DNA of 64,000 bases from Methylococcaceae bacterium TMED69 (GCA_002170535.1 NHDW01000004.1:186190-250189), one strand, 5' to 3'. Counted from the stretch's first letter, positions 2 to 46,581 are shown. Numbers and translations are program-made. The notes: a model not told the origin generated them from the letters alone.

Positions 2-427
2 AAAGCCGGCTTGAAAAGATTAGGCTGCTTGAATGATAAAAAATATAAAATCTGCGACCTGAAGGAAATGATTCCTGCAGCGGGTCAGGGCGCTATTGGA
101 GTGGAGGCTCTGAGTAATAATAATAGGGTAAAAAAAATTTTTGCTAGGCTAAATTGTTCCAATACTTTTAGATGTGTTATGGAGGAACGAAAAATTATTA
201 AGAAACTTGGAGGAGACTGTGGCTCCCCTATCGCTGTATTTGCTAAACAAAAAAATAAAATTCTAAAAATGCAAGCTTTTGTAGGCGATATTGTCGGAAG
301 CAACTCAATACGAACAGTTGCCGACTTTCCTGAAAATTGTTCCGTAAATGCAGGTGAATCTCTTGCCAATGTATTAATAAAGCTAGGAGCGCTGAGACTT
401 GTTGCTGGACAAAGAGGTTTGGAATAA
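2..427 (+). CDS. hemC: porphobilinogen deaminase (hydroxymethylbilane synthase), C-terminal ~140 aa; 5' end lies outside the window
   Basis: AAGQGAIGVE motif and HemC C-terminal domain; followed by hemD-hemX-hemY in canonical order. Confidence 0.85.
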   Translation, partial: KAGLKRLGCLNDKKYKICDLKEMIPAAGQGAIGVEALSNNNRVKKIFARLNCSNTFRCVMEERKIIKKLGGDCGSPIAVFAKQKNKILKMQAFVGDIVGSNSIRTVADFPENCSVNAGESLANVLIKLGALRLVAGQRGLE

Positions 428-434
428 TGTAGCT

Positions 435-1184
435 ATGTTGAAGATAATGATCACTAGGCCAAAAGACCAAATGTTAGAGTTAGCTCAGTCACTGAAAGCT
501 GTCGGAAATTTAGCTATTTCAGCGCCTTTAATTAGAATCAAGTATCTAGAACTAGTTCCTAACGAATTAATGCAACTCTTAGACTGGTCAGATATCATAA
601 TTTTCACAAGTCAAAATGCTATTTCACCAACAATTGGTAGAATTAAAAATATGCAAATTTTTAATGAAAAAAAAATCTTTGCAATTGGAAAAAAAACTCA
701 AGAGTGCCTCTTAGCAAAAAAAATAAGTCAAGTTTTTATTCCTAAAGGTATAAATTCAACAGAAGGTTTGTTAATGCTAAATGAATTATCCCAATTTCAT
801 ATTGCCAATAAAAATATTTTAATTGTGAAAGGCCAGGGTGGCCGTAAAAAGCTAAGATACAATCTTTTAGATAGAGGTGCGCATTTGAAATATATTGATA
901 GCTATTTAAGGCAGGAAACCAATATAAGCATTAGTCAGGTTTTACAAACTGAAGATATTACGACACCAGATTTAATTATAATTACCAGTGGTTCAATTTT
1001 GTTGTCATTGGTGAAAAAAATAAAATCAGAAAATCTAAACGCTTTGTTTTCGACTCCCTTAATAGTTGTTAGCCAACGATTAGCAAAAATTGCAAGACGG
1101 TTAGGTTTTATTGGCGCTATACGTATAGCAGAAAATGCAAATGATGAATCTATTATAGATTTGATAAAATATTGGGGCTCATAG
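435..1184 (+). CDS. hemD: uroporphyrinogen-III synthase
   Basis: HemD-like sequence (MLKIMITRPK...). Position directly after hemC. ATG at 435 chosen over the upstream alternative start in the track. Confidence 0.8.
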   Translation: MLKIMITRPKDQMLELAQSLKAVGNLAISAPLIRIKYLELVPNELMQLLDWSDIIIFTSQNAISPTIGRIKNMQIFNEKKIFAIGKKTQECLLAKKISQVFIPKGINSTEGLLMLNELSQFHIANKNILIVKGQGGRKKLRYNLLDRGAHLKYIDSYLRQETNISISQVLQTEDITTPDLIIITSGSILLSLVKKIKSENLNALFSTPLIVVSQRLAKIARRLGFIGAIRIAENANDESIIDLIKYWGS

Positions 1185-1185
1185 G

Positions 1186-2250
1186 GTGGCAAAATATAAC
1201 ATAGAAGAGGGAGAGGTATTAGAGAAAAAACCATACAAAAAGAAATTATTTGTAATGGTTATGTTTTTCATTTTGATTGCCTTTGTTTTTTATCTTTTTA
1301 TGAAACACGATCTCTTGGATAAACTCAAAGGAGACCGACTTGGCGAGAAATCTTTAGATAACCCCACGGAATATATAAATCCACCAATTGCTACCCCTGA
1401 TTACAGCAATGAGATAGCTCAAATAAAGCTACAAGTTAAAACACTAAATGCAGAGAATCAAAACTTTAAAGCCACGCTAAAAATTTTGAGTGACAGGCTA
1501 AATCAAAAGAATATGATTGCAACTAACGAACCTAAAGAGTTAATCAACAAGCAAGCTACTGATAGAATAAATCGAGTATTAGTATCAATGTTATCTTCGC
1601 TTGATGGTGATTTAAAAAATGCGAAAAACTTGAAAGCCATTGAGTCGAATTTTGACCAGCTGATTTTGATTCTGAGTCTTTTTGTTCCATATAAGGATGA
1701 TTCAATATTAGCTCAAGTTGAAGAGCTTAAAATGACTACAAAAGATGAGTTAGAAATTTTTATAGATCAAGTAGATTCTGAATTAATCACTATAGATAAT
1801 GAATTATGGACTACTATGGTTAATAATTCTGAAAGAGCTCCCTTTCCAGTTATAAAAAAGGCTGATGAAGATAAGCCAATTAGTGGTAAATTAGAAGAAC
1901 CTTATTCACTGAAAAAAAAAATTAAAGAGGAGATCATGAAATTTGTTGACATTGCCCCAGTTGATAACACAGTGTCTCCGCAAATTTCAAACTTGGATCG
2001 TTTAACAACTATAACTAAGCTTAGTGTAAAAATAGCTGCATCTCGAACTCTTCTTTGGAATCTTGAATTTGAAAAATTAAACTCTTACTTAAATGGTATA
2101 AAAAGTAATCTTGAGTTTCATTTTCCTGAAATGGTAGAACCCAAAAGTTCTATAGATAGAATTTCTAAAAAATTAAATAACTTTGGTTTCGATAACGAAG
2201 GGTTAGATAAAATTATAAGTCTTTTAGAAAATAATATTAAGGAGCAATGA
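1186..2250 (+). CDS. hemX: HemX-family membrane protein (N-terminal TM helix plus coiled coil)
   Basis: Single N-terminal hydrophobic helix, long coiled-coil region, conserved position between hemD and hemY. Confidence 0.7.
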   Translation: MAKYNIEEGEVLEKKPYKKKLFVMVMFFILIAFVFYLFMKHDLLDKLKGDRLGEKSLDNPTEYINPPIATPDYSNEIAQIKLQVKTLNAENQNFKATLKILSDRLNQKNMIATNEPKELINKQATDRINRVLVSMLSSLDGDLKNAKNLKAIESNFDQLILILSLFVPYKDDSILAQVEELKMTTKDELEIFIDQVDSELITIDNELWTTMVNNSERAPFPVIKKADEDKPISGKLEEPYSLKKKIKEEIMKFVDIAPVDNTVSPQISNLDRLTTITKLSVKIAASRTLLWNLEFEKLNSYLNGIKSNLEFHFPEMVEPKSSIDRISKKLNNFGFDNEGLDKIISLLENNIKEQ

Positions 2251-3431
2251 GTTTGAAATTAATATTGGTTCTGTTTTTCGGATTGATGGGGGTGATTATA
2301 CTGTCAAATTGGCCCCCTTTTAGTGCAGGATCACTTTCGTTTGCAATTGATGGGTATAAAATTAATGTAGATCTTGGGTTTTTTAGTTTTTTGATGATAA
2401 TGGTTTTTATCTTGTTCCATCTTTTTTTAAATTTAATTAATCTATTTCTGAATACTTTTCAATTTCGAATTATTAGGTTGAAAGAAAAAGCAAGTTACAA
2501 TCTTTCCTTGGGTCTAATCTACAAAGGATTAGGAGATTTAAAAAGAGCCGAAAGACTATTTATAAACAAAGCAACACATAGCGAATTACCAGAAGCTCAT
2601 TTTATTGCAGCGGCAGAAGTTGCACATCAAAGAAACGATAATTTATCTAGGGATAACTATATTGAAAAGGCTTTTGGATTGTCAGCTTCAAAAAAATTGC
2701 CCATCGCTATTATAAAAAAACTAGAATGGATGGTTGAGGAAGGAAAGCTTGATTTGGCTGTGCAAATTTTAAGCACTCTTCCTTTGAAAATAAAAAAGCA
2801 AAAAAAAATGCTTGTCCTCCAAAAGGTTCTTTATGAGAAGACAGGTGATTTCGACAAAATTTTAAACATGCTTCCTGATTTAAAGAGACTTGATGAGTTC
2901 AATAATAACTATTTAAAGCAATTAGAATTATCTTGTGCGATCAATGTTCTGGTTAGTGGCTGTTTTACAGATATTGCAAGCTTACGAAAAAAGTGGCTAT
3001 CCTTTTCAAAAGACATTAGACAAAAACCGCCCATAATAGCCGTATATGCAAAATCTTTACTAAAAAATGATGCTAGTTCTGAGGCAGAAAAGATATTAAA
3101 AAGATGTTTAGACGACAGTATGGATATCCAGTTATTGGAGATTTATGGGTCTATACCAAGTGAAAAACCAAAAAGAATGCTAAGAGCAATCCAATATTGG
3201 ACAACGAAATATGGAGAAAGTCTTGAGTTAGAGATGGCAGCTGCTCAGCAATGTATTTTCGCCACAATGTGGGGAAAAGCAAAGAATCATCTTTTGAAAG
3301 TGGTCGAAAATTCTCCTACCCCAGTAGCATTAAAGTTAATGGCAGATGTCGAGGAACGATTAGGCAACCATGGTGTGTCATTAGTTAGGAGGAGGCAAGG
3401 CCTCGAGCTTGCGGCAAAAGAAAAAAGATAG
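2247..3431 (+). CDS. hemY: HemY-family TPR membrane protein
   Basis: Two N-terminal TM segments then TPR-like repeats; 4-nt overlap with hemX; canonical hemCDXY operon. Confidence 0.75.
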   Translation: MSLKLILVLFFGLMGVIILSNWPPFSAGSLSFAIDGYKINVDLGFFSFLMIMVFILFHLFLNLINLFLNTFQFRIIRLKEKASYNLSLGLIYKGLGDLKRAERLFINKATHSELPEAHFIAAAEVAHQRNDNLSRDNYIEKAFGLSASKKLPIAIIKKLEWMVEEGKLDLAVQILSTLPLKIKKQKKMLVLQKVLYEKTGDFDKILNMLPDLKRLDEFNNNYLKQLELSCAINVLVSGCFTDIASLRKKWLSFSKDIRQKPPIIAVYAKSLLKNDASSEAEKILKRCLDDSMDIQLLEIYGSIPSEKPKRMLRAIQYWTTKYGESLELEMAAAQQCIFATMWGKAKNHLLKVVENSPTPVALKLMADVEERLGNHGVSLVRRRQGLELAAKEKR

Positions 3432-4151: not shown

Positions 4152-5009
4152 TCATCCTTGATTTATTAAATTTAAGATTGTAGGTAGAAATACATCTTTT
4201 AGGCAATTTTTCAAGTCTTTTGCTCGTATTGTTTGAGTTGCGCTCCCTAATTCCTCGTTGAACATGTCCCATTTTTTTTGTTGTATGTGATCTAGATTTT
4301 TGAAAACTGATTCGTTTTTTATGCTTAGCATATAGATTGAATTTTCATCAGCAGGTATTGATTCAACCTTGAAAGGGTCCGATAAATCTACTAGTGGGAT
4401 TCTTTCTAGATTTGCATCAGTTCTAGAAAATTGAGGACAAATATAATCGAGATAGTCGGGCAAACGTCTGATAATAAGTCTTTTAACCTCTTGCTTTGAA
4501 TAACCTCTTACTAATAGGTCTCTGTGGCTTTTTTGAACCCACTCTAGGTTGATTGAGGGTGTTATGCCAATTAACAAGTCAACGTATCGTGTAATATCAA
4601 TTTGATCGTCTTTGTAGCCACCATGCAATCCCTCGTAAAACAAAATATCATATGTTTGTTCAATTTCCTTCCACTCCGAAAAACATCCTATATTAACCCC
4701 TAGATTCTTAGCATCTTTTTCTGAATGAGCATACTGTCTGGCCACTCCTTTTCCGGAGATAGAAAAGTTTTTAAATAAATCTGCCAATAAGTCCAAATGA
4801 TTGCTTTTGGGTGAAAAATGGGTCAATGAGCTCTCTGTTTTATTTAAGGCTTCCATTTCTGTTCGCGTATATTTATGAAAGCTGTCGCCTTGAATGTAAA
4901 CTGCTTTGATTTGATTCTCTTTAAAAATTGCATCAAAAATAGATTTGATATTGGTCTTGCCTGCTCCGGACGGACCCGTGAGTGCTATTATCGGCTTTTT
5001 TTTCTTCAT
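4152..5009 (-). CDS. prk: phosphoribulokinase
   Basis: 285 aa; PIIALTGPSGAGKT P-loop, FYEGLHGG and EWVQK...ICPQFSRT blocks align along the full length with bacterial PrkB/CbbP. Confidence 0.9.
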   Translation of the reverse strand: MKKKKPIIALTGPSGAGKTNIKSIFDAIFKENQIKAVYIQGDSFHKYTRTEMEALNKTESSLTHFSPKSNHLDLLADLFKNFSISGKGVARQYAHSEKDAKNLGVNIGCFSEWKEIEQTYDILFYEGLHGGYKDDQIDITRYVDLLIGITPSINLEWVQKSHRDLLVRGYSKQEVKRLIIRRLPDYLDYICPQFSRTDANLERIPLVDLSDPFKVESIPADENSIYMLSIKNESVFKNLDHIQQKKWDMFNEELGSATQTIRAKDLKNCLKDVFLPTILNLINQG

Positions 5010-25394: not shown

Positions 25395-25399
25395 TTTTA

Positions 25400-25580
25400 A
25401 GGATCCATGTTGCCGTGCTATACATTTACCTCGAACCGAAAGTTCAAGATTGGAACGTCCCCGACTGAATCAGGCTTTCTCAAACTCTGGAGAATGCTCA
25501 ACATCAGTACGACTTCTGCTCCTATTTTTTTTTAAGCATAGGCTCAGAGACTAATGAAAGCACATGCAACACAGAAACTA
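25400..25580 (-). ncRNA. ssrS: 6S RNA (SsrS); ends approximate
   Basis: Minus-strand sequence directly downstream of zapA matches remembered E. coli 6S blocks (CUGAGCC; GAGCAUNCUC; GAGAAAGCC; CUUGAAC...GGUUCGAGG). The 5' UUUCUGUGUUGCAUGUGCU pairs with the 3' AGCACGGCAACAUGG to close the structure. zapA-ssrS synteny. Confidence 0.6.
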
Positions 25581-29945: not shown

Positions 29946-30866
29946 ATGACCACTGTTAAAAAAAATAGCATAGACATTGTAAATGGGTGCATATATTCAA
30001 CCAACTTAATTGATTTTCAATTTATTAAAAGGGGCAAAGTGCGTGATATCTACGAGGTTGGAGATCGGCATCTTCTAATAGTCGCTACTGATAGGCTATC
30101 TGCTTTTGATATTGTTATGGCGCAGCCTATACCAAATAAAGGAAAAATCTTGACAACAATCTCTAATTTCTGGTTCGAAAAAACAAGCAAGATTATAAAG
30201 AATCATATTAGTGATATTAATATAAGAAGCTTGTTTTCTTCAGAAGAACTTTATAAAAAAATAAATGCTCAAATCTCAATAGTCGCAAAATTAGCACCGA
30301 TAAAGTTTGAGGCAGTCGTCAGAGGGTTTCTAGCCGGAACGGCTTGGTTAGATTATTTAAAGAACGATTCTGTATCTGGTGTAAAGTTAAGAAAAGGATT
30401 ACAAAAATTCGAGCGCCTTGATGAACCTATCTTTACCCCCTCGACTAAAGCAGCATTAGGCGATCACGATGAAAACATACCCTATGAAGATATGATTAAA
30501 TCCCTTGGTTATGAATTGGCAGAAGAAATAAAAAAAACTAGCATTATGCTTTATAAAGAAGCATTCGAATATTCTTTTTCAAAAGGGATTATACTAGCTG
30601 ATACCAAGTTTGAGTTTGGTTTGGATAGTCATGGGAACCTTATTTTGATTGATGAAGTTTTCACACCTGATTCCTCTCGATTTTGGGATAAATCGACTTA
30701 TCAAAAAGGAAGCGAACCCTTGAGTTTTGATAAACAATTTATAAGAGATTACCTCAATGCCAATTCTTGGAATCGAAAAGAAGAAATCTATTTTCCAGAG
30801 AAAATTATTAATCAAACTAGTGAAAGATATAAGTTAGCTCAGGAAAAATTAATAGGTAAAAGCTAA
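29946..30866 (+). CDS. purC: phosphoribosylaminoimidazole-succinocarboxamide synthase (SAICAR synthetase, long form)
   Basis: GKVRDIY motif and ADTKFEFG block; 306 aa. Confidence 0.9.
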   Translation: MTTVKKNSIDIVNGCIYSTNLIDFQFIKRGKVRDIYEVGDRHLLIVATDRLSAFDIVMAQPIPNKGKILTTISNFWFEKTSKIIKNHISDINIRSLFSSEELYKKINAQISIVAKLAPIKFEAVVRGFLAGTAWLDYLKNDSVSGVKLRKGLQKFERLDEPIFTPSTKAALGDHDENIPYEDMIKSLGYELAEEIKKTSIMLYKEAFEYSFSKGIILADTKFEFGLDSHGNLILIDEVFTPDSSRFWDKSTYQKGSEPLSFDKQFIRDYLNANSWNRKEEIYFPEKIINQTSERYKLAQEKLIGKS

Positions 30867-32014
30867 TTTTCTTCAAGAATGCTAATTACAGGTGACTTTT
30901 TTCCTTCTAAGAATTCTAAGAAAGCACCACCAGCGGTAGAAATATAAGAGATTTTATCCGAAACATTGAATTTCTCGATTGAGGCGATGGTATCCCCTCC
31001 GCCTGCCACTGAGAATGCAGAGGATTCGGCAATTGTTTCCGCTATGGTTCTTGTTCCATTGGCAAAGTTATCGAACTCAAAAACCCCTATCGGACCATTC
31101 CAAAGTATCGTTTTAGCGGATTGAATTTTTGATACGATTTTCTTTAAAGTTTTAGGTCCAAAGTCTAAAATAAGATCATTTTCCCTTATTTCATTGAGAG
31201 GCCTGATAGTACCAATAGCTGTTTTACTAAATTCACTGGCACAAACTACATCTATCGGGAAAACGATATTGTCAATATCTTTAAATAATCTACACGCGTC
31301 TTCATAGGCACCTTTTTCAAAAAGTGATTTCCCAATTTGATGGCCACGTGCTTTTATAATCAGATTTGCTATACCACCCCCTAAGATTAAATGGTCTACT
31401 TGTTTCGATAGATTCTTTATTAAGGCGGTTTTGGTTGATATTTTTGAGCCCCCTACAATTGCCACCGTTGGTGATTCATTTTTCTTTACAACTTTGTAAA
31501 GTGCCTGAACTTCAGATAAAAATAACGGCCCAGCTACTTTAGCTTGTGCAAATTGGGCTACACCATAATTAGATGCATGTGCTCTATGGCTATTAGAAAA
31601 AGCCTCGTTTATAAATATATCGCATAATTTACTCATCTTCTTAGCGAGTTGCGAGTCATTGCTGGTTTCGCCTTTTAGGAATCTCACGTTTTCGCATAAT
31701 AGAACCTCCCCCTTGTTAATCCTGACTCCGTCTATCCAATTTTTTTTAAACTTGACCGGCAGGCCGAGAGTCTTCTCGAGAGTTGGAATAAGTGTGGATG
31801 TTGATAAATTTAAATCTTCTGCTCCCTCTTTTGGCCTGCCAATATGGGTCACTAAGATGATGCTTCCCCCTTTATCAAGAATTTTATGAATGGTGGGTGC
31901 AGTTTGTCTAATCCTGAAGTCGTTGGTAACTTTTTTGTTTTCTAACGGTACGTTGAAATCAACCCTCAATAGTACTTGTTTATCTTCAAAATCAAGTTCT
32001 TCAAAAGGTATCAT
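30863..32014 (-). CDS. pgk: phosphoglycerate kinase
   Basis: Full-length PGK similarity (RVDFNVP, GGGASLE-like blocks); ATG at 32014 overlaps gap stop (ATGA). Confidence 0.95.
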
Positions 32015-33024
32015 GAACACTCTTTCATTTTTTTGGCCGTATCTAGCATCCGATTAGAAAAGCCCCACTCATTATCATACCAGCTTACAACCTTTACTAG
32101 GTTTCCCTCTATAACTTTGGTTTGAGCAGGATCTACGATGGATGACCTTGGATCGCCTTTGAAATCGATTGAGACCAGAGGTTCTTCACAAAACCCTAGG
32201 ATACCTTGTAAAGTTGAGTTTGCCTCTTCTTTTAAGATCCTGTTGACCTCTTCAGCACTTGTGTTTCTCTTCGCTTTAAAAGTTAGATCAACGAGCGATA
32301 CTACTAGTGTTGGTACTCTGACAGCGTATCCATCAAGTTTTCCTTTTAATTCAGGTAAGACTAATCCAACGGCGGATGCTGCTCCGGTTTTTGTGGGAAT
32401 TATTGATTGCGTGGCGGACCTGGCTCTTCTTAAATCATCATGATATACGTCACTTAAAACTTGGTCGTTAGTATATGCATGTACTGTGGTCATTAGACCA
32501 CTTTCCACCCCAATTTGCTTTGCTAATGGTTTTACTAAAGGTGCGAGACAATTAGTAGTACAGGATGCATTCGAAACGATTTTGTGGCTTGGTAAAAGGA
32601 CATTGTCATTAACACCATAAACGATTGTGGCATCAACATCATTTCCTGCTGGCGCGGAGATTAAAACTTTTTTGGCCCCTGAGGCGATGTGTTGATTTGC
32701 GCCATTTTTATTGGCGAAGATACCCGTGCATTCAAAAACAATATCTATTTTTAATTCTTCCCAAGGAAGTTTCGATGGGTCTTTTTCATTTAGAACAAAT
32801 ATTTTGTCATGTCCTATTTGTATATGGTCAGAATCTGAGGATATTTTCTGATCCATGGGTCCATAGGCACTGTCATATTTGAGTAAATGCGCATTTGCCG
32901 CGGTATCACCTAGATCATTGATAGCTATAAATTCAAGATCCGCATGTTTTTTAGTTTGATAATGAGCCCTGATAATATTTCTCCCAATTCTTCCAAACCC
33001 ATTGACCGCGATTCTCAATGTCAT
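32011..33024 (-). CDS. gap: glyceraldehyde-3-phosphate dehydrogenase
   Basis: [11 protein letters not shown] motif, SCTTNCLAP active-site block, 337 aa. Confidence 0.95.
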
Positions 33025-33046
33025 GATATCTATCTCCTATCTTATT

Positions 33047-35059
33047 TCATGGTTGTCTAAGATAATTTTTTATCTTAATCAGGCAGTTATCTAAGTCTAA
33101 TTCAAATTCTTTAAATAAAATGTCGGCCGGTGCTGAAGCCCCGAACTGATTTATTCCGATAGCAAGCCCTTCCTTCCCGATGTATTTGTACCAAAGGTCT
33201 GTTGATCCGGCTTCAATTGCAATCTTTTTTATACTCTCTGGCAGTACTGTTTTTTTGTATGATTCGTCCTGCTGGTCAAAAACTTGTGAGCAAGGCATGG
33301 AAACAACTTGAATTGCTAAACTCTCCTGCTTTAATGCCGAGGCAATTTCTAGAGCGAGGGAAACTTCAGATCCTGTTGCTATTATACATGCAATAGGATT
33401 GTCGATATTTTTGAGTATATACCCACCTTTTTTTAGATTTTGTATTTCAATTTGGGAAAGATCTAGTTGTGGCATTGATTGTCTAGAGAGGATTAGACAG
33501 GATGGACCGGTTTTTTTTTCGATAGAGGATTGCCAGCCAATGAGGGTTTCGGTTCTATCAGCTGGTCTCCAGACATCTAGATTAGGTATTAGTCGAAGCG
33601 CTTGTAAATGTTCAACAGGTTGGTGAGTGGGGCCATCTTCACCTAAACCTATGGAGTCATGTGTATAAACCAATACAGCGCGAATTTTCATTAAGGCTGC
33701 CATCCTGACGGCGTTTCTGGCGTAGTCTGAAAAGACCAAAAAAGTACCCCCATAGGGGATGCATCCCCCATAAAGTGAGATTCCATTCATTATCGCGGTC
33801 ATTCCAAATTCTCTGACGCCGTAGAAAAGGTAATTGCCTCCATAATCATTTAGATTAAGTGCCCTGCTAGACGTGGAAAACGTGTTGTTGGAACCAGTTA
33901 GATCGGCTGAGCCGCCAATTAACTCGGGTGTAGAAGGAGAGATCATATTCAAAACCGTTTGCGAAGATTTCCGTGTCGCCTCACTCTTTTTATCTTTCTG
34001 AATTTCTATGAGTGAGTTTTGAATGGTTTGGTTCCAATTATTAGGCAGCTTACAATTTACTCTTCGATCTAGTTCCTCCCAGTCTTCAGGGTAATCTTTT
34101 TTATATTTCTCAAGTATAGAATTCCATTCTCTTTCAGCAACCTCTCCTTTCTTCTTGCAATCCCAAGATTCGTAAAATGTTGTTGGAATTTCGAACGGAT
34201 CATAATTCCAATGTAAAGCTTCTCTTGTTTTCTTGATTTCATCTTCGCCAAGAGCTGCCCCATGAGAATCAGCTGTTCCAGATTTGTTAGGGGAACCATA
34301 GCCAATAGTGGTCTTACAAATAATGATTGATGGTCGGTCATGATTATCAATCGCGGAGGAATAAGCTTTATTTAAGCTTTCTATATTGTGGCCATCAACG
34401 TTTTCAATCACATGCCAACCATATGCTGAAAACCTTTCAGCTATATTTTCTGAAAACCAGTTTTTAATATCACCGTCAATCGAAATACCATTAGAATCAT
34501 AAAGAACATTCAATTTTCCCAGTCTTAGAGTTCCAGCTAAGGAGCAGACTTCATGTGAAATTCCTTCCATAAGGCAACCATCACCTACGAACGCGAACGT
34601 TCTGTTGTTGATAAGTTCGATATTTTTTTTATTAAATCTCGCAGACAAGTTTCGTTCCGCAATTGCAAATCCAACAGCGTTCGCAAGACCTTGGCCAAGT
34701 GGCCCAGTTGTGGTTTCGACTCCAGGCGTTTCTCGATATTCAGGATGTCCGGGAGTAGCAGAATGTAGTTGTCTAAACGACTTAAGATCACTGATTGACA
34801 AAGAATATCCGCAAAGATGCAATAGCGAATATATAAGCATGGAGGCATGACCATTTGATAGAACAAATCTATCCCTATTAAACCATTTTGGGTTCTTTGG
34901 ATTATGTTTTAAATAGTTTAACCAAAGGACCATAGCCGCTTCGGCTAACCCCATTGGTGCTCCAGGATGTCCTGATTTCGCTAATTCTACGGCATCGATC
35001 GACAAGAAACGTATTGCATTTGCAAGTTGCCTAGAATTTATTTGGTTTAAAGACTCCAA
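33047..35059 (-). CDS. tkt: transketolase
   Basis: LANAIRFLSIDAVELAKSGHPGAP TPP-binding start and full-length Tkt similarity; probable TTG start at 35059 after GGAGG (track GTG start 35089 less likely). Confidence 0.95.
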   Translation of the reverse strand: MESLNQINSRQLANAIRFLSIDAVELAKSGHPGAPMGLAEAAMVLWLNYLKHNPKNPKWFNRDRFVLSNGHASMLIYSLLHLCGYSLSISDLKSFRQLHSATPGHPEYRETPGVETTTGPLGQGLANAVGFAIAERNLSARFNKKNIELINNRTFAFVGDGCLMEGISHEVCSLAGTLRLGKLNVLYDSNGISIDGDIKNWFSENIAERFSAYGWHVIENVDGHNIESLNKAYSSAIDNHDRPSIIICKTTIGYGSPNKSGTADSHGAALGEDEIKKTREALHWNYDPFEIPTTFYESWDCKKKGEVAEREWNSILEKYKKDYPEDWEELDRRVNCKLPNNWNQTIQNSLIEIQKDKKSEATRKSSQTVLNMISPSTPELIGGSADLTGSNNTFSTSSRALNLNDYGGNYLFYGVREFGMTAIMNGISLYGGCIPYGGTFLVFSDYARNAVRMAALMKIRAVLVYTHDSIGLGEDGPTHQPVEHLQALRLIPNLDVWRPADRTETLIGWQSSIEKKTGPSCLILSRQSMPQLDLSQIEIQNLKKGGYILKNIDNPIACIIATGSEVSLALEIASALKQESLAIQVVSMPCSQVFDQQDESYKKTVLPESIKKIAIEAGSTDLWYKYIGKEGLAIGINQFGASAPADILFKEFELDLDNCLIKIKNYLRQP

Positions 35060-35211
35060 TATGCTCTTCCCTCCGATTTTATAGGTCACTGATTCGTACT
35101 AATTAATGCCTAATTATAGTTCAGACTTCTACTAACTGCACTTATAAAAGTATAATATAGTAAAAACTGAAACAAACCTTCTATATGATATCAGTAAATC
35201 GGAGATAAATA

Positions 35212-42201: not shown

Positions 42202-42972
42202 ATGCTTGAAGAAGTTATAGAAAATAAAAAGATAAGTTATAGTCTTGATTTTGATGAATCCAGAAAAAGAAACTTGTTTCTGATTCATGGGGCGTCCTGT
42301 GATTCGAAGGTATTTTTAGAACTTAGTAATAAACTATTAAAAAAATTTAATGTTATGTCAATTGATCTAAATGGCCACGGTGAATCAGGGGGAGAAGGAT
42401 TTAGAGGCGTAGTGGATCATGCGTTTGTTTGTGCTGAGCTTCTAGAAAAAAAGAACCTCGGGCGATGGAATATTATGGGCCATTCTCTCGGAGGTGCGAT
42501 TGCCATGACGTTAGCTTTGTATAAACCAGATTTAATTGACTCCCTTATCTTAGTGGCTACAGGTTCTCGTTTGAGAATCCCTGAAACTTTTCTATCAGAG
42601 ATAAAAAAGGGTAATAATTATGAGTTAAATAAAGAATTTTTAAGAAATTCGATGTTCGATGGTTCTAATGATAGCATCTTAGCCCCACTTTTGGAGATAA
42701 TGCAATCTACAAACCCCAAAGCGGTCTACAAAGATTGGTTAGCAGCAGATTCATTTGATTTATCTAGAAGGTTAAAATCAATAAAATCAAGATGCTTATT
42801 AATTTGCGGTGAAAATGATCCGTTGACACCTCCGAAATACCACGAGTTGTTGAACTCCGAAATACCTAGCTCAAAGCTTTCCGTATTTCCAAACTGTGGA
42901 CATTGGCCGTTTATTGAAAAATCCGAATTGTTTTTAGAGGAACTTGATAAATTCTTGTCTAGCCTTCAATAA
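42202..42972 (+). CDS. alpha/beta-fold hydrolase
   Basis: GHSLGG nucleophile elbow, 257 aa; ATG at 42202. Confidence 0.75.
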   Translation: MLEEVIENKKISYSLDFDESRKRNLFLIHGASCDSKVFLELSNKLLKKFNVMSIDLNGHGESGGEGFRGVVDHAFVCAELLEKKNLGRWNIMGHSLGGAIAMTLALYKPDLIDSLILVATGSRLRIPETFLSEIKKGNNYELNKEFLRNSMFDGSNDSILAPLLEIMQSTNPKAVYKDWLAADSFDLSRRLKSIKSRCLLICGENDPLTPPKYHELLNSEIPSSKLSVFPNCGHWPFIEKSELFLEELDKFLSSLQ

Positions 42973-43405
42973 TTTTAAGCATATCCGAGGCGTGACTTTG
43001 AGGATCTACGGCATCGAAATAATGTGTTACATTACACTCGGTATCCAGAATCACTGAGACTCGAGGTGCGTAGGAATCCGCTACTCCACAAATATTGAGT
43101 TTTTTAGACTCTTCAAGTCCAAGGTCTGAAAGGATGTCAAAAGGGAAAGAAAACTTTTCTTTGAAAGATTTATTATCTTCTGGTGAATCTCCGCTGACAC
43201 CAAGTATCACAGTATTTTTCTTAGTAAACTCTTGGATTCTATCACGGAACCCACTGCCCTCAATGGTTCATCCTGGTGTATCGGCTTTTGGAAACCACCA
43301 TAAAATAAGTTTTTTTCCAGAAAAATTATCGATAGAAACGACTTCTCCGTTTTGATTTACGAAAGATAAATTAGCTAGATTTTTACCAACTATAGTTTCA
43401 GGCAT
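42959..43405 (-). CDS. bcp: candidate selenoprotein: Bcp/PrxQ-type peroxiredoxin with in-frame TGA (43268-43270) at the peroxidatic Cys position
   Basis: Translation from ATG 43405: ...KKLILWWFPKADTPG-U-TIEGSGFRDRIQEF...VILGVSGDSPEDNKSFKEKF... aligns with E. coli Bcp YFYPKAMTPGCTVQACGLRD with TGA at Cys45. Frame continues into the track ORF 42959..43210. 7-bp hairpin 15 nt after UGA. Confidence 0.75.
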
Positions 43406-44356: not shown

Positions 44357-45340
44357 TTAATGCAAGGTTGGATTAATCCAAATTGCTTTTCTTTTTGCTG
44401 ATACCACATTTACAATAGTATGCTTGTCTCCTCTTTCGATTTCAATTGAGATGATATTGCCTGCTGGGCCTGCATTCCATATTTCTTTAAAAAGTTGATC
44501 TAAAGTTTTCGGTGCAACTCCGTTAATACTTTTTATAATATCTCCGTTACTTATCCCAGCTAAGGCGGCTGGGGAGGACTTATAGAGCCCTAAAACTACA
44601 AATTGTTCTTCTACAACGGATACAAAAAATCCCAAATAAGGCCTATTGCTTTCTTTGACTCCACCTGTCCTCTTTATTTCGGAGAAAAAAGACCATAGAG
44701 GATCTATCGGAATACACAAATTCCCTGAAAACTCGCTTTTACTGGTGGGTGGATTCTCCAAGTAAAGAGAACCTATTCCACTTAGCTCCCCTTTTTTATT
44801 GAGAAGAGCAGCTCCTCCCCAGTTTGGGTGTGATGGTGTTGTATAAAAAGCTCTGTCTAACACGTATTCCCAGTATCCTGTAAAGCTATCACAACTCCCT
44901 ATATCAACCACTACAGTCTGCTCTAAACCACCAAACCCTGCTAACATAAAGCCAGAATCTCCAGCATTAATCTGTTTATTACAATCTGATACAGGAATGG
45001 TAGGAATGGATATTGTACTTAACGGTTTTAATAGCCCTAGTCCGGATTCATAGTCGTACATTACTGTATCTGCCAATACAGTTTCGTCACTGGCTGTAGT
45101 TATCCAAATTTGCGTTGCTTCTGCAATGAGGTAGCCTACTGTAACAATTAGTCCCATCTGATTAATGAAAACACCATTGCCGGTTCTCTTTGTGCCTAAG
45201 ATATCGGCTGTTTGTGCATGCTCGGGGACAATAGTGGTGATTGATACTATTGCCCGGAGTCTTCTTTCCATTTCTTCGTCCGAAATGTCAAAGTTTTCGA
45301 ATCTTTCGCTCCGCGGTTGAACCATCTTTTCGTCTGTCAT
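44357..45340 (-). CDS. trypsin-like (S1C) serine peptidase with C-terminal PDZ domain
   Basis: Chymotrypsin-fold N-region with GDSG-type block (NAGDSGFMLAG); PDZ-like C-terminus (LGLYKSSPAALAGISNGDIIKSING). Confidence 0.75.
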   Translation of the reverse strand: MTDEKMVQPRSERFENFDISDEEMERRLRAIVSITTIVPEHAQTADILGTKRTGNGVFINQMGLIVTVGYLIAEATQIWITTASDETVLADTVMYDYESGLGLLKPLSTISIPTIPVSDCNKQINAGDSGFMLAGFGGLEQTVVVDIGSCDSFTGYWEYVLDRAFYTTPSHPNWGGAALLNKKGELSGIGSLYLENPPTSKSEFSGNLCIPIDPLWSFFSEIKRTGGVKESNRPYLGFFVSVVEEQFVVLGLYKSSPAALAGISNGDIIKSINGVAPKTLDQLFKEIWNAGPAGNIISIEIERGDKHTIVNVVSAKRKAIWINPTLH

Positions 45341-45359: not shown

Positions 45360-45704
45360 TTATTTCGAAAAAATGTCATTGAATTTATCCTCGTTGAAAC
45401 CTACTACAATCATATTTTTATAAATTATAGTTGGGGCACGAAGGTTCCCAGTTGGGCCCAACATAAATGGTGTTATGGAAGATTTTTTTTCATCTTTAAT
45501 ATCAAAATGATTTGTGTTTCTCCCCTTAAAAATAATTATTTTGACAGCTCTTTCTAGGAGGGACTCTGCTTCCGGTTTACCCAGTTTTTTGTTAGCTGAA
45601 ATTTCTTCGATTATTTGAATAGAATTTGCTTCCAAGAACTCGGATGCTTTGGTGCAAGTAGCTCATCCTTTTCGAAAGTAATACCATTTAATCTTTTTGC
45701 TCAT
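45360..45704 (-). CDS. candidate selenoprotein: ArsC/YffB/Spx-family thioredoxin-fold protein with in-frame TGA (45663-45665) replacing the first Cys of CxxC
   Basis: From ATG 45704: MSKKIKWYYFRKG-U-ATCTKASEFLEANSIQIIEE... aligns with E. coli YffB [24 protein letters not shown]. Frame continues into the track ORF 45360..45635 (whose M is a TTG Leu). Total 114 codons, typical family length. Confidence 0.7.
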
Positions 45705-46581
45705 AGTTTTCACATAATATATCAAAAGCATACTTATCGCCATCTTTTATAATTTGGCCAAAACTTGATCCTGAGAAGTGTGACCCTATCAATATACTGT
45801 TTTGTCCAGCGTTCTTTTCCAGAATTCTTCTTCTTGTTTTTATAGATAAATCTTTATCAAAATCATAATAGCTATTCCAATCAGGGCACGCTATTTGACA
45901 GGGATGATGTATCATATCTCCTGTTATTATAATATTTAAATTATTGTAATTAACTACAACGCTCGTATGACCCGGCGTATGCCCGGGTGTGCCAATTATT
46001 GTGACATTATTATCTATTGAATAAGGGGGACTAATGAACATAGCTTGGCCGCTCTTGATGACAGGGTTAATTGATTCTTCAATTATGTTTCCATGCAGTT
46101 TGTTTTCATACTTCTTAGCATGTTGAAATTCCTTTTCGGAAAAAATATATGATGCATTTGGGAATGTTGGTTCCCAAACGTTGTTTATTTTGGTGGTATT
46201 CCATCCGATGTGGTCCAAATGAATATGGGTGCATACTATATAATCTACTTCAGTTTGAACAACGCCTGCCGCTTGAATTTTTTCGAGGAACTTACTTTGT
46301 TTATTGGCCCAAGGTAGATAAGTAAGGTCTTTATGATTTCCAATACAAGTATCGACAATAATTATTTTATCATTGGATTCAATAACAAAAAGTTGGACGA
46401 CTATCTCTAGCCCTTGTTTTTCCGATAGAAAAGTTTGGTCTAACCAAGGTATTTTTTTTAAATTATCAGGGGTTGCATTTGGTATTAAAGGCAGAGTTCC
46501 CCGATTGGTTGTTTCGATTACCCTTTTTATTTTAATCTTATTGTCATTTGACCTTATAAGGTAGTTTTCTGTTGTTTTCAC
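45688..46581 (-). CDS. MBL-fold metallo-hydrolase
   Basis: HxHxDH motif (THIHLDHIGW), 297 aa; GTG start; 3' end overlaps the ArsC-family start by 17 nt. Confidence 0.8.
   Translation of the reverse strand: MKTTENYLIRSNDNKIKIKRVIETTNRGTLPLIPNATPDNLKKIPWLDQTFLSEKQGLEIVVQLFVIESNDKIIIVDTCIGNHKDLTYLPWANKQSKFLEKIQAAGVVQTEVDYIVCTHIHLDHIGWNTTKINNVWEPTFPNASYIFSEKEFQHAKKYENKLHGNIIEESINPVIKSGQAMFISPPYSIDNNVTIIGTPGHTPGHTSVVVNYNNLNIIITGDMIHHPCQIACPDWNSYYDFDKDLSIKTRRRILEKNAGQNSILIGSHFSGSSFGQIIKDGDKYAFDILCENYEQKD

Follow-up and report, generated by a model that had tools for sequence, protein, structure and literature searches.

Does the TGA inside a small ArsC-like gene encode selenocysteine (Sec), or does it mark a lesion, an ordinary sense codon or a genuine end of the reading frame? 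The question is raised by a locus in a stretch of 64,000 nucleotides from Methylococcaceae bacterium TMED69 (hereafter the window, with positions counted from its first letter), for which the original prediction had placed Sec at the first cysteine of a redox-active CxxC motif. Our analysis indicates that the TGA almost certainly encodes Sec in a small ArsC/Spx-like redox protein.

Reading frame, family and fold of the ArsC-like protein

The gene for the ArsC-like U-x-x-C selenoprotein lies on the minus strand at 45704..45360 and comprises 114 codons, including that of the predicted Sec14, from an ATG at 45704-45702 to a TAA at 45362-45360. Translation bore out the long frame that had been proposed from ATG 45704 through TGA 45663-45665; it reads MSKKIKWYYFRKG*ATCTKASEFLEANSI... 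and holds one in-frame TGA only. This TGA, the predicted Sec14 codon, occupies 45665-45663 (minus strand), and a TGC at 45654..45656 on the same strand encodes Cys17, the resolving Cys of U-x-x-C and an invariant column in the family alignment, so that the motif in the protein is G-U14-A-T-C17. Homologues begin with MSKK or MAKK, in agreement with this start codon. Automatic ORF listing recovers just a 91-residue piece (45360..45635); as had been predicted, its TTG (45635-45633) is an internal Leu, namely Leu24 in the long frame, and every full-length Cys form likewise has an internal Leu there. The observation of an in-frame TGA in an ArsC-like gene is therefore confirmed.

We then scored the protein against family models, with the TGA written as Cys. 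The NCBIfam model NF041106 ('ArsC_rel_Se_1, ArsC family (seleno)protein') gave 105.1 bits, above its cutoff of 85, with E 2.6e-30; residues 5-108 of the protein cover model positions 1-107 of 107. The NF041106 core residues W7, Y9, R11, GPTGNLRAP and VGFNE, which form invariant or near-invariant columns in the family alignment, are all present. Scores fell below cutoff for TIGR01617 (Spx/MgsR; 29.1 versus 75.05 bits), NF002459 (Spx; 22.4 versus 123 bits), NF008107 (YffB-type; 13.6 versus 121 bits) and Pfam PF03960 (ArsC; 12.9 versus 24 bits), the last of which was matched by 15 of 19 family members at E <= 1 (best 5.6e-14). There was no match to TIGR00014 (ArsC) at E <= 0.1, and a Pfam search with the window protein returned nothing at E <= 0.01. 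In the profile alignment, R89 of the R-A-P motif is the only residue equated with an ArsC/Spx Arg. By these profile scores, the protein is assigned to a separate branch of the ArsC/Spx/YffB superfamily for which a model already exists, and the gene is very probably a genuine Sec-encoding member of NF041106.

The family itself is not new. In the GOS selenoproteome, 'Arsenate reductase 2, cd03032, UxxC' is represented by 42 selenoproteins from 21 samples, alongside 238 Cys homologues (PMC2398784, Table 2); the UxxS 'ArsC 1' and TxxU Prx families are also entered there (PMC2398784). A 2026 review equates NF041106 with the UxxC 'Arsenate reductase-like protein' first reported in 2008 from GOS metagenomes, and states that no member has been characterised biochemically (PMC13188914). 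Knowledge of the family, including where its Sec lies and its occurrence in the sea, thus dates back to 2008, and the present gene is a correct re-discovery of an ordinary member. It shares with 'Arsenate reductase 2' the U-x-x-C motif, the marine metagenome origin, membership of a family in which Sec predominates and Cys homologues are the minority, and a coding-region SECIS. Compared to other NF041106 members, the window copy is AT-rich and somewhat divergent, has S-E-F-L-E for S-K-F-L-E, which produces a G.U stem pair in the SECIS, carries the loop GUUC, and falls below the PF03960 threshold.

A search of solved structures with the family profile ranked Spx first (1Z3E and 6GHB, E ~8e-11), followed by putative ArsC-family proteins, and gave a marginal match to YffB (PA3664, 1RW1; E 0.0033). 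The original prediction, which rested on an alignment to YffB, thus holds for the ArsC/Spx/YffB superfamily and fails for YffB as the closest relative, Spx being the closest solved protein; the YffB-type proteins (PA3664, 1RW1; NF008107) are likewise small ArsC-family proteins with an N-terminal Cys motif. In the profile alignment, the Sec column falls on Cys10 of the Spx C10-x-x-C13 motif, and LRAPT and VGFNE of the family align with LRRPI and VGYNE of Spx. An AlphaFold2 model was built from 17 sequences on P0001, a homologue of 74% identity that has W in place of Sec, and reached a pLDDT of 87.6. Its elements are E7-10, H15-26, E34-36, H43-50, E55-60, E63-68, H74-81, E92-95, E98-101 and H105-113, which would place residue 14 directly before helix 15-26, at the N-terminus of helix 1. 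The predicted position of Sec, at the first Cys of CxxC where helix 1 begins, is accordingly consistent with the family membership, the Sec/Cys pairs among homologues, the conservation of the TGA described below, the alignment with Spx Cys10 and the AlphaFold2 model.

Foldseek searches of the PDB with this model returned Spx at the top, then ArsC-family proteins and glutaredoxins, with a TM-score of ~0.53. The model (mdfb8a78a7e5d) contains a beta-hairpin at residues 55-68, in the central insert where Spx and ArsC are all-helical, and its rmsd to Spx is ~6 A; this predicted hairpin probably explains both the low TM-score and the weak Pfam ArsC match. Spx/MgsR (B. subtilis Spx 1Z3E, 6GHB) and the present protein share the superfamily, a thioredoxin-like fold, an N-terminal C-x-x-C corresponding to U14-x-x-C17, an R-P motif before strand beta-3 (LRRPI versus LRAPT here) and the VGYNE/VGFNE motif. 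Unlike Spx, the protein scores below the Spx HMM cutoffs, superposes with a TM-score of only ~0.53, has a predicted beta-hairpin for the helical part and uses Sec; moreover, the ArsC-like family occurs in Pseudomonadota and Planctomycetota, whereas Spx occurs in Firmicutes. R773-type ArsC and the UxxS 'ArsC 1' (TIGR00014) share the superfamily and a nucleophile at the N-terminus of helix 1, but ArsC uses a single catalytic Cys, with UxxS in the Sec form (PMC1088965, PMC2398784), in contrast to U-x-x-C here. Given this single Cys of ArsC and the below-cutoff scores for ArsC-type models, true arsenate reductase activity is unlikely.

The likeness to Spx also raises the question of whether the protein is an RNA polymerase-binding redox sensor, with Sec14-Cys17 as its switch, and not an enzyme. 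Its best solved relatives by both sequence and fold are Spx proteins, and its Sec aligns with the first residue of the C10xxC13 switch; against this stand the failure of both Spx models (29.1 versus 75 bits for TIGR01617 and 22.4 versus 123 for NF002459), the TM-score of ~0.53, and the position of the predicted beta-hairpin 55-68 in the subdomain that carries the RNAP alpha-CTD contact in Spx. The use of Sec, which is typical of catalysts and not of switches, likewise counts against a regulator, and we consider this reading improbable. It is a distinctly slim prospect that a structurally separate ArsC/Spx branch serves as a Sec-based redox sensor or regulator in Gram-negative marine bacteria, being neither an arsenate nor an ordinary disulfide reductase; if true, such a Sec-based Spx-analogue would be the first Sec-dependent transcriptional switch.

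The hairpin downstream of the UGA

No convincing SECIS hairpin had been recognised after the UGA in the original prediction, and this view was not borne out. Pair covariation, codon bias and folding identified a predicted SECIS, GC-A-UCCGA-[GUUC]-UUGGA-A-GC, at 45647..45628 on the minus strand. From the UGA, it is 15 nt to the base of the stem and 23 nt to the apical loop (45639-45636). Below the five upper-stem pairs, one of which is G.U, come an A.A mismatch and then two G-C pairs, and the element covers the A-S-E-F-L-E-A codons of helix 1. The weak CCAA...UUGG stem mentioned in the original prediction is a different pairing and was rejected at +2.4 kcal/mol.

We aligned the post-UGA region of 81 distinct sequences by gapless stacking (alignment A2). 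The family consensus of the hairpin is GCN-UCCAA-[GUUU]-UUGGA-NGC, lying over codons A-S-K-F-L-E/D-A. The proposed pair cells are paired in 83.3% of cases, compared to 22-48% after the partners had been displaced by 1-3 columns. Double-change cells number 35, compared to 15.3 ± 3.3 in shuffles, and 0/500 shuffles came up to this number; since the sequences are related by descent, these shuffle statistics overstate independence and are to be read as counts and not as probabilities. Individual pairs vary while staying paired: pair 27-42 takes six standard pair types among the relatives, pair 32-37 is G-C instead of A-U in eight sequences, and pair 30-39 is seen as C-G, A-U, U-A, G-U and U-G. When folded over a 27-nt stretch, all 81 sequences beat their own synonymous-codon resamples (mean -9.2 versus -5.2 kcal/mol). 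Thus, the folding and orthologue covariance that had been proposed as a check revealed a conserved hairpin with compensatory changes.

Codon usage points in the same direction. At the stem, Ser is encoded by UCC in 64/66 cases (14% elsewhere in the same genes), Lys by AAG in 62/62 (61% elsewhere) and Leu by YUG in 73/79 (49% elsewhere), and Phe in the loop is encoded by UUU in 57/77 (38% elsewhere). The A-S-K-F-L-E stretch is conserved in Sec forms and variable in Cys-form proteins. The Cys-form DNA provided a weak control, consisting of two independent sequences only, of which the GC-rich one still forms an unrelated hairpin. Planctomycetota-type loci (L002-L005 and L081) have Q-E-F-L-A instead of S-K-F-L-E at ~19-36 nt after the TGA; their hairpin, GCGCAAG-AGUUU-CUUGCG, is shifted in register by one column, the RNA element being kept through different amino acids. 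Collectively, these results show that the hairpin after the UGA is under RNA-level selection.

Bacterial SECIS (bSECIS) elements have been described as having a loop of 3-9 nt, an upper stem of 4-16 bp, a UGA-to-loop distance of 16-37 nt and an MFE <= -7.5 kcal/mol, with a G in the first two loop positions, usually followed by G or U (PMC13188914, Fig. 2). The window hairpin, with loop GUUC, a 5-bp stem and 23-nt spacing, lies within the structural limits, and 79/81 relatives agree with criteria i-iii of this description. Its energy is borderline: the hairpin alone has -7.0 kcal/mol, which misses -7.5, and the MFE of the UGA plus 39 nt is -8.3. Relative to the bSECIS consensus (the bSECISearch model, with E. 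coli fdhF as the paradigm), it is the same kind of coding-region hairpin, with a 4-nt G-U loop, a 5-bp upper stem and 23-nt spacing. It differs from the fdhF SECIS in its unrelated sequence, in the A.A mismatch that interrupts the stem in about half of the ArsC-like family, and in the borderline energy of the window copy.

Folded as a single sequence, the 79 nt downstream of the UGA scored no better than shuffled versions (z = -0.21), and the family hairpin was missing from this fold. In the window, a competing fold at 45606..45665 on the minus strand (GAGCU...AGUUC plus GGAAG...AUUCU) reaches -9.9 versus -8.3 kcal/mol and comes into play beyond ~45 nt after the UGA. From the 81-sequence alignment, RNAalifold at default settings placed only 2 pairs, both elsewhere, and missed the hairpin, probably because pair 27-42 can be an A.A mismatch and the Planctomycetota register is shifted by one column; the hairpin was tested as a named structure. 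A search of Rfam gave no SECIS or other family match, the sole hit being a chance-level 6S-Flavo at E 5.9.

Conservation of the TGA and alternatives to selenocysteine

We compared 86 loci, namely the window, 5 genome loci and 80 metagenome loci taken from at least 592 relatives found in a metagenome scan. Of the genome loci, one belongs to a Pseudomonadota MAG (66% identity) and four belong to Planctomycetota MAGs (35-38%). A TGA occupies the identical codon in 86/86 loci at 35-66% identity, Pseudomonadota and Planctomycetota included, which is far more than expected by chance, and there are no other stops. All 86 loci read W-x-Y-x-R-x-x-TGA-x-x-C in frame with a downstream GPTGN[LM]RA. Among the best 120 protein homologues, 112 are Sec-type, 7 have CxxC and 1 is unclassified. 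Ninety-two of the Sec-type proteins are N-terminally truncated after the TGA and 20 are full-length with W14 (code 4); most of the 92 are ~90 residues long, the size expected from a gene-caller restart after the TGA. The 7 proteins with Cys at the Sec position are more distant homologues, and a TGC codon was read in Cys-form DNA (L086-L089). The comparison of orthologues thus gave TGA in every locus, Cys in the distant homologues and no further frame-disrupting lesion, in keeping with the original prediction.

The window belongs to a Tara Oceans scaffold of 168.9 kb (ERZ2773031, scaffold_38). The same TGA is present in four independent metagenome assemblies, one of which has a divergent 3' end and represents a different strain. 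Elsewhere in the window, TGA is an ordinary stop that ends 17/55 long non-overlapping ORFs, and a window-wide scan for TGA-bridged ORFs with a redox-type context found only the ArsC-like and Bcp/Prx genes credible. No tRNA-Sec or other Sec machinery was found in the window, the ~81 kb of scaffold or the related loci, and Pfam tables for scaffold positions 33.7-114.6 kb, a small part of the genome, contain no SelA, SelB or SelD domains.

These data bear on whether a standard amino acid is inserted at the UGA, be it through a reassigned code (4 or 25) or through near-cognate Cys or Trp read-through without Sec machinery. Such decoding would accord with the W at position 14 in 20 public protein records and with the lack of visible Sec machinery in 81 kb of scaffold, although 81 kb is a small fraction of the genome. 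It conflicts with the role of TGA as the stop of 17 of the 55 long ORFs, with the restriction of credible TGA-bridged ORFs to two, both bridged at catalytic-Cys positions, and with homologues that show Cys and never a genomically encoded Trp; GC-rich Planctomycetota and other relatives also combine the TGA with a SECIS-type hairpin. We therefore regard decoding as a standard amino acid as very improbable. Trp at position 14 appears in 20 of the best 120 homologues (within P0001-P0032) as the product of TGA=Trp translation, a systematic mis-annotation in ENA-derived predictions.

Gene callers skipped the gene or cut it to 91 residues, as would suit a pseudogene, a nonsense mutation or a sequencing or assembly error with no full-length product, but this reading is effectively refuted, and its likelihood negligible, by a TGA at the same codon in 86/86 loci across phyla with no other frame-disrupting lesion, by the invariant W7, Y9 and R11 upstream of it, by the identical codon in 4 independent assemblies and by the RNA-level selection on the downstream hairpin. 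That the real product is the 91-residue ORF from TTG 45635, with the upstream 23 codons as an untranslated leader, is scarcely conceivable: the frame is open, its start codon is permitted and many database entries have this form, but the product would be without strand beta-1 and the entire U-x-x-C active site, the upstream 13 codons are conserved as in-frame protein, and the TTG forms the 3' arm of the conserved hairpin and is an internal Leu in all full-length Cys forms.

Genomic setting and proposed function

A second TGA case, in a Bcp gene 2.4 kb away, had been cited in support of the first, and it is real and the same in four independent assemblies. The gene (43405..42959, minus strand; TGA 43270-43268) encodes a peroxiredoxin of the Bcp/PrxQ type, in which T-P-G-U falls at the peroxidatic Cys (...FPKADTPG*TIEG), and its TxxU motif is that of the known Sec-Prx family (PMC2398784). 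Scored against NF006960 with U as C, the protein stays under the cutoff of 140, at 88.5 bits. A candidate hairpin, UGGGUUC-[CGUGAUA]-GAAUCCA, has -6.1 kcal/mol and a loop 21 nt after the UGA, within bSECIS criteria i-iii; a stronger alternative hairpin (-7.7) includes the UGA itself. Public calls split this gene at the TGA into products of 45 and 83 residues (L090 13177-13623), and they omit the ArsC-like gene from the Tara scaffold, leaving a gap between its MBL-fold and HtrA neighbours (L090 10894-11242).

Upstream of the ArsC-like gene lies a gene for an MBL-fold hydrolase (46581..45688, minus strand; PF00753), the last 17 nt of which overlap the start of the selenoprotein gene; its product has lactonase-like matches only, all below cutoffs. 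Downstream, 19 nt after the stop, is a gene for an HtrA/DegS-like serine protease (44357..45340, minus strand) with Trypsin_2 and PDZ domains, below NCBIfam cutoffs. The 17-nt overlap and the 19-nt gap make local co-transcription plausible. A scan for promoters and terminators around the gene gave counts no different from shuffles. An MBL-fold neighbour is upstream in only 4/86 loci (the window, L001, L015 and L082), and no conserved neighbourhood emerged, the largest neighbour cluster comprising 13/86 loci. Thus, of the link to the MBL-fold gene suggested in the original prediction, the 17-nt overlap stands and co-transcription is plausible only locally, while a family-wide functional link is contradicted by the 4/86 count.

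The layout of the window looks gammaproteobacterial, at 37.7% GC. A 6S RNA at 25398..25580 (minus strand) adjoins zapA and zapB; a hemC-hemD-hemX-hemY-type cluster is also present, RF1-PrmC adjoins hemA, and there are genes for phosphoribulokinase, transketolase, GAPDH, PGK and a class-I aldolase-like protein. The coordinates listed with these 6S, hem and carbon-metabolism features are 399..3431, 4152..5009 and 30863..35089. On the scaffold outside the window (L096 4913-7020 and L095 6191-7144) are genes for glutamate-cysteine ligase, MsrB (Pfam 'SelR', which is not Sec machinery) and glutathione synthetase.

By analogy with established bacterial Sec decoding and with CxxC/UxxC oxidoreductases, UGA14 would be decoded as Sec by SelB and Sec-tRNA(Sec), with SelB, carrying the Sec-tRNA(Sec), binding the G-U-containing apical loop of the coding-region hairpin 23 nt downstream during the time that the ribosome stands at the UGA. 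The resulting thioredoxin-fold protein of ~113 residues may act as a selenol/thiol oxidoreductase, in which Sec14 at the N-terminus of helix 1 would attack an oxidised substrate and Cys17 would resolve the intermediate to yield an intramolecular selenenylsulfide, to be re-reduced by cellular thiols. With both glutathione biosynthesis enzymes encoded nearby, a glutathione system could re-reduce the UxxC protein.

As the family is known, the locus opens no new question, and NCBIfam-based annotation would name the gene automatically. The modest addition made here is an explicit family SECIS consensus with covariation and codon-bias support, showing an RNA constraint on the helix-1 codons (A-S-K-F-L-E). 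The gene is another case in which standard gene calling mishandles a real selenoprotein, by skipping it, cutting it to ~90 residues or reading the UGA as Trp. With the ArsC-like selenoprotein recognised, the annotation is put right, and this AT-rich marine proteobacterium emerges as a likely user of Sec that has at least 2 selenoproteins within 2.4 kb.
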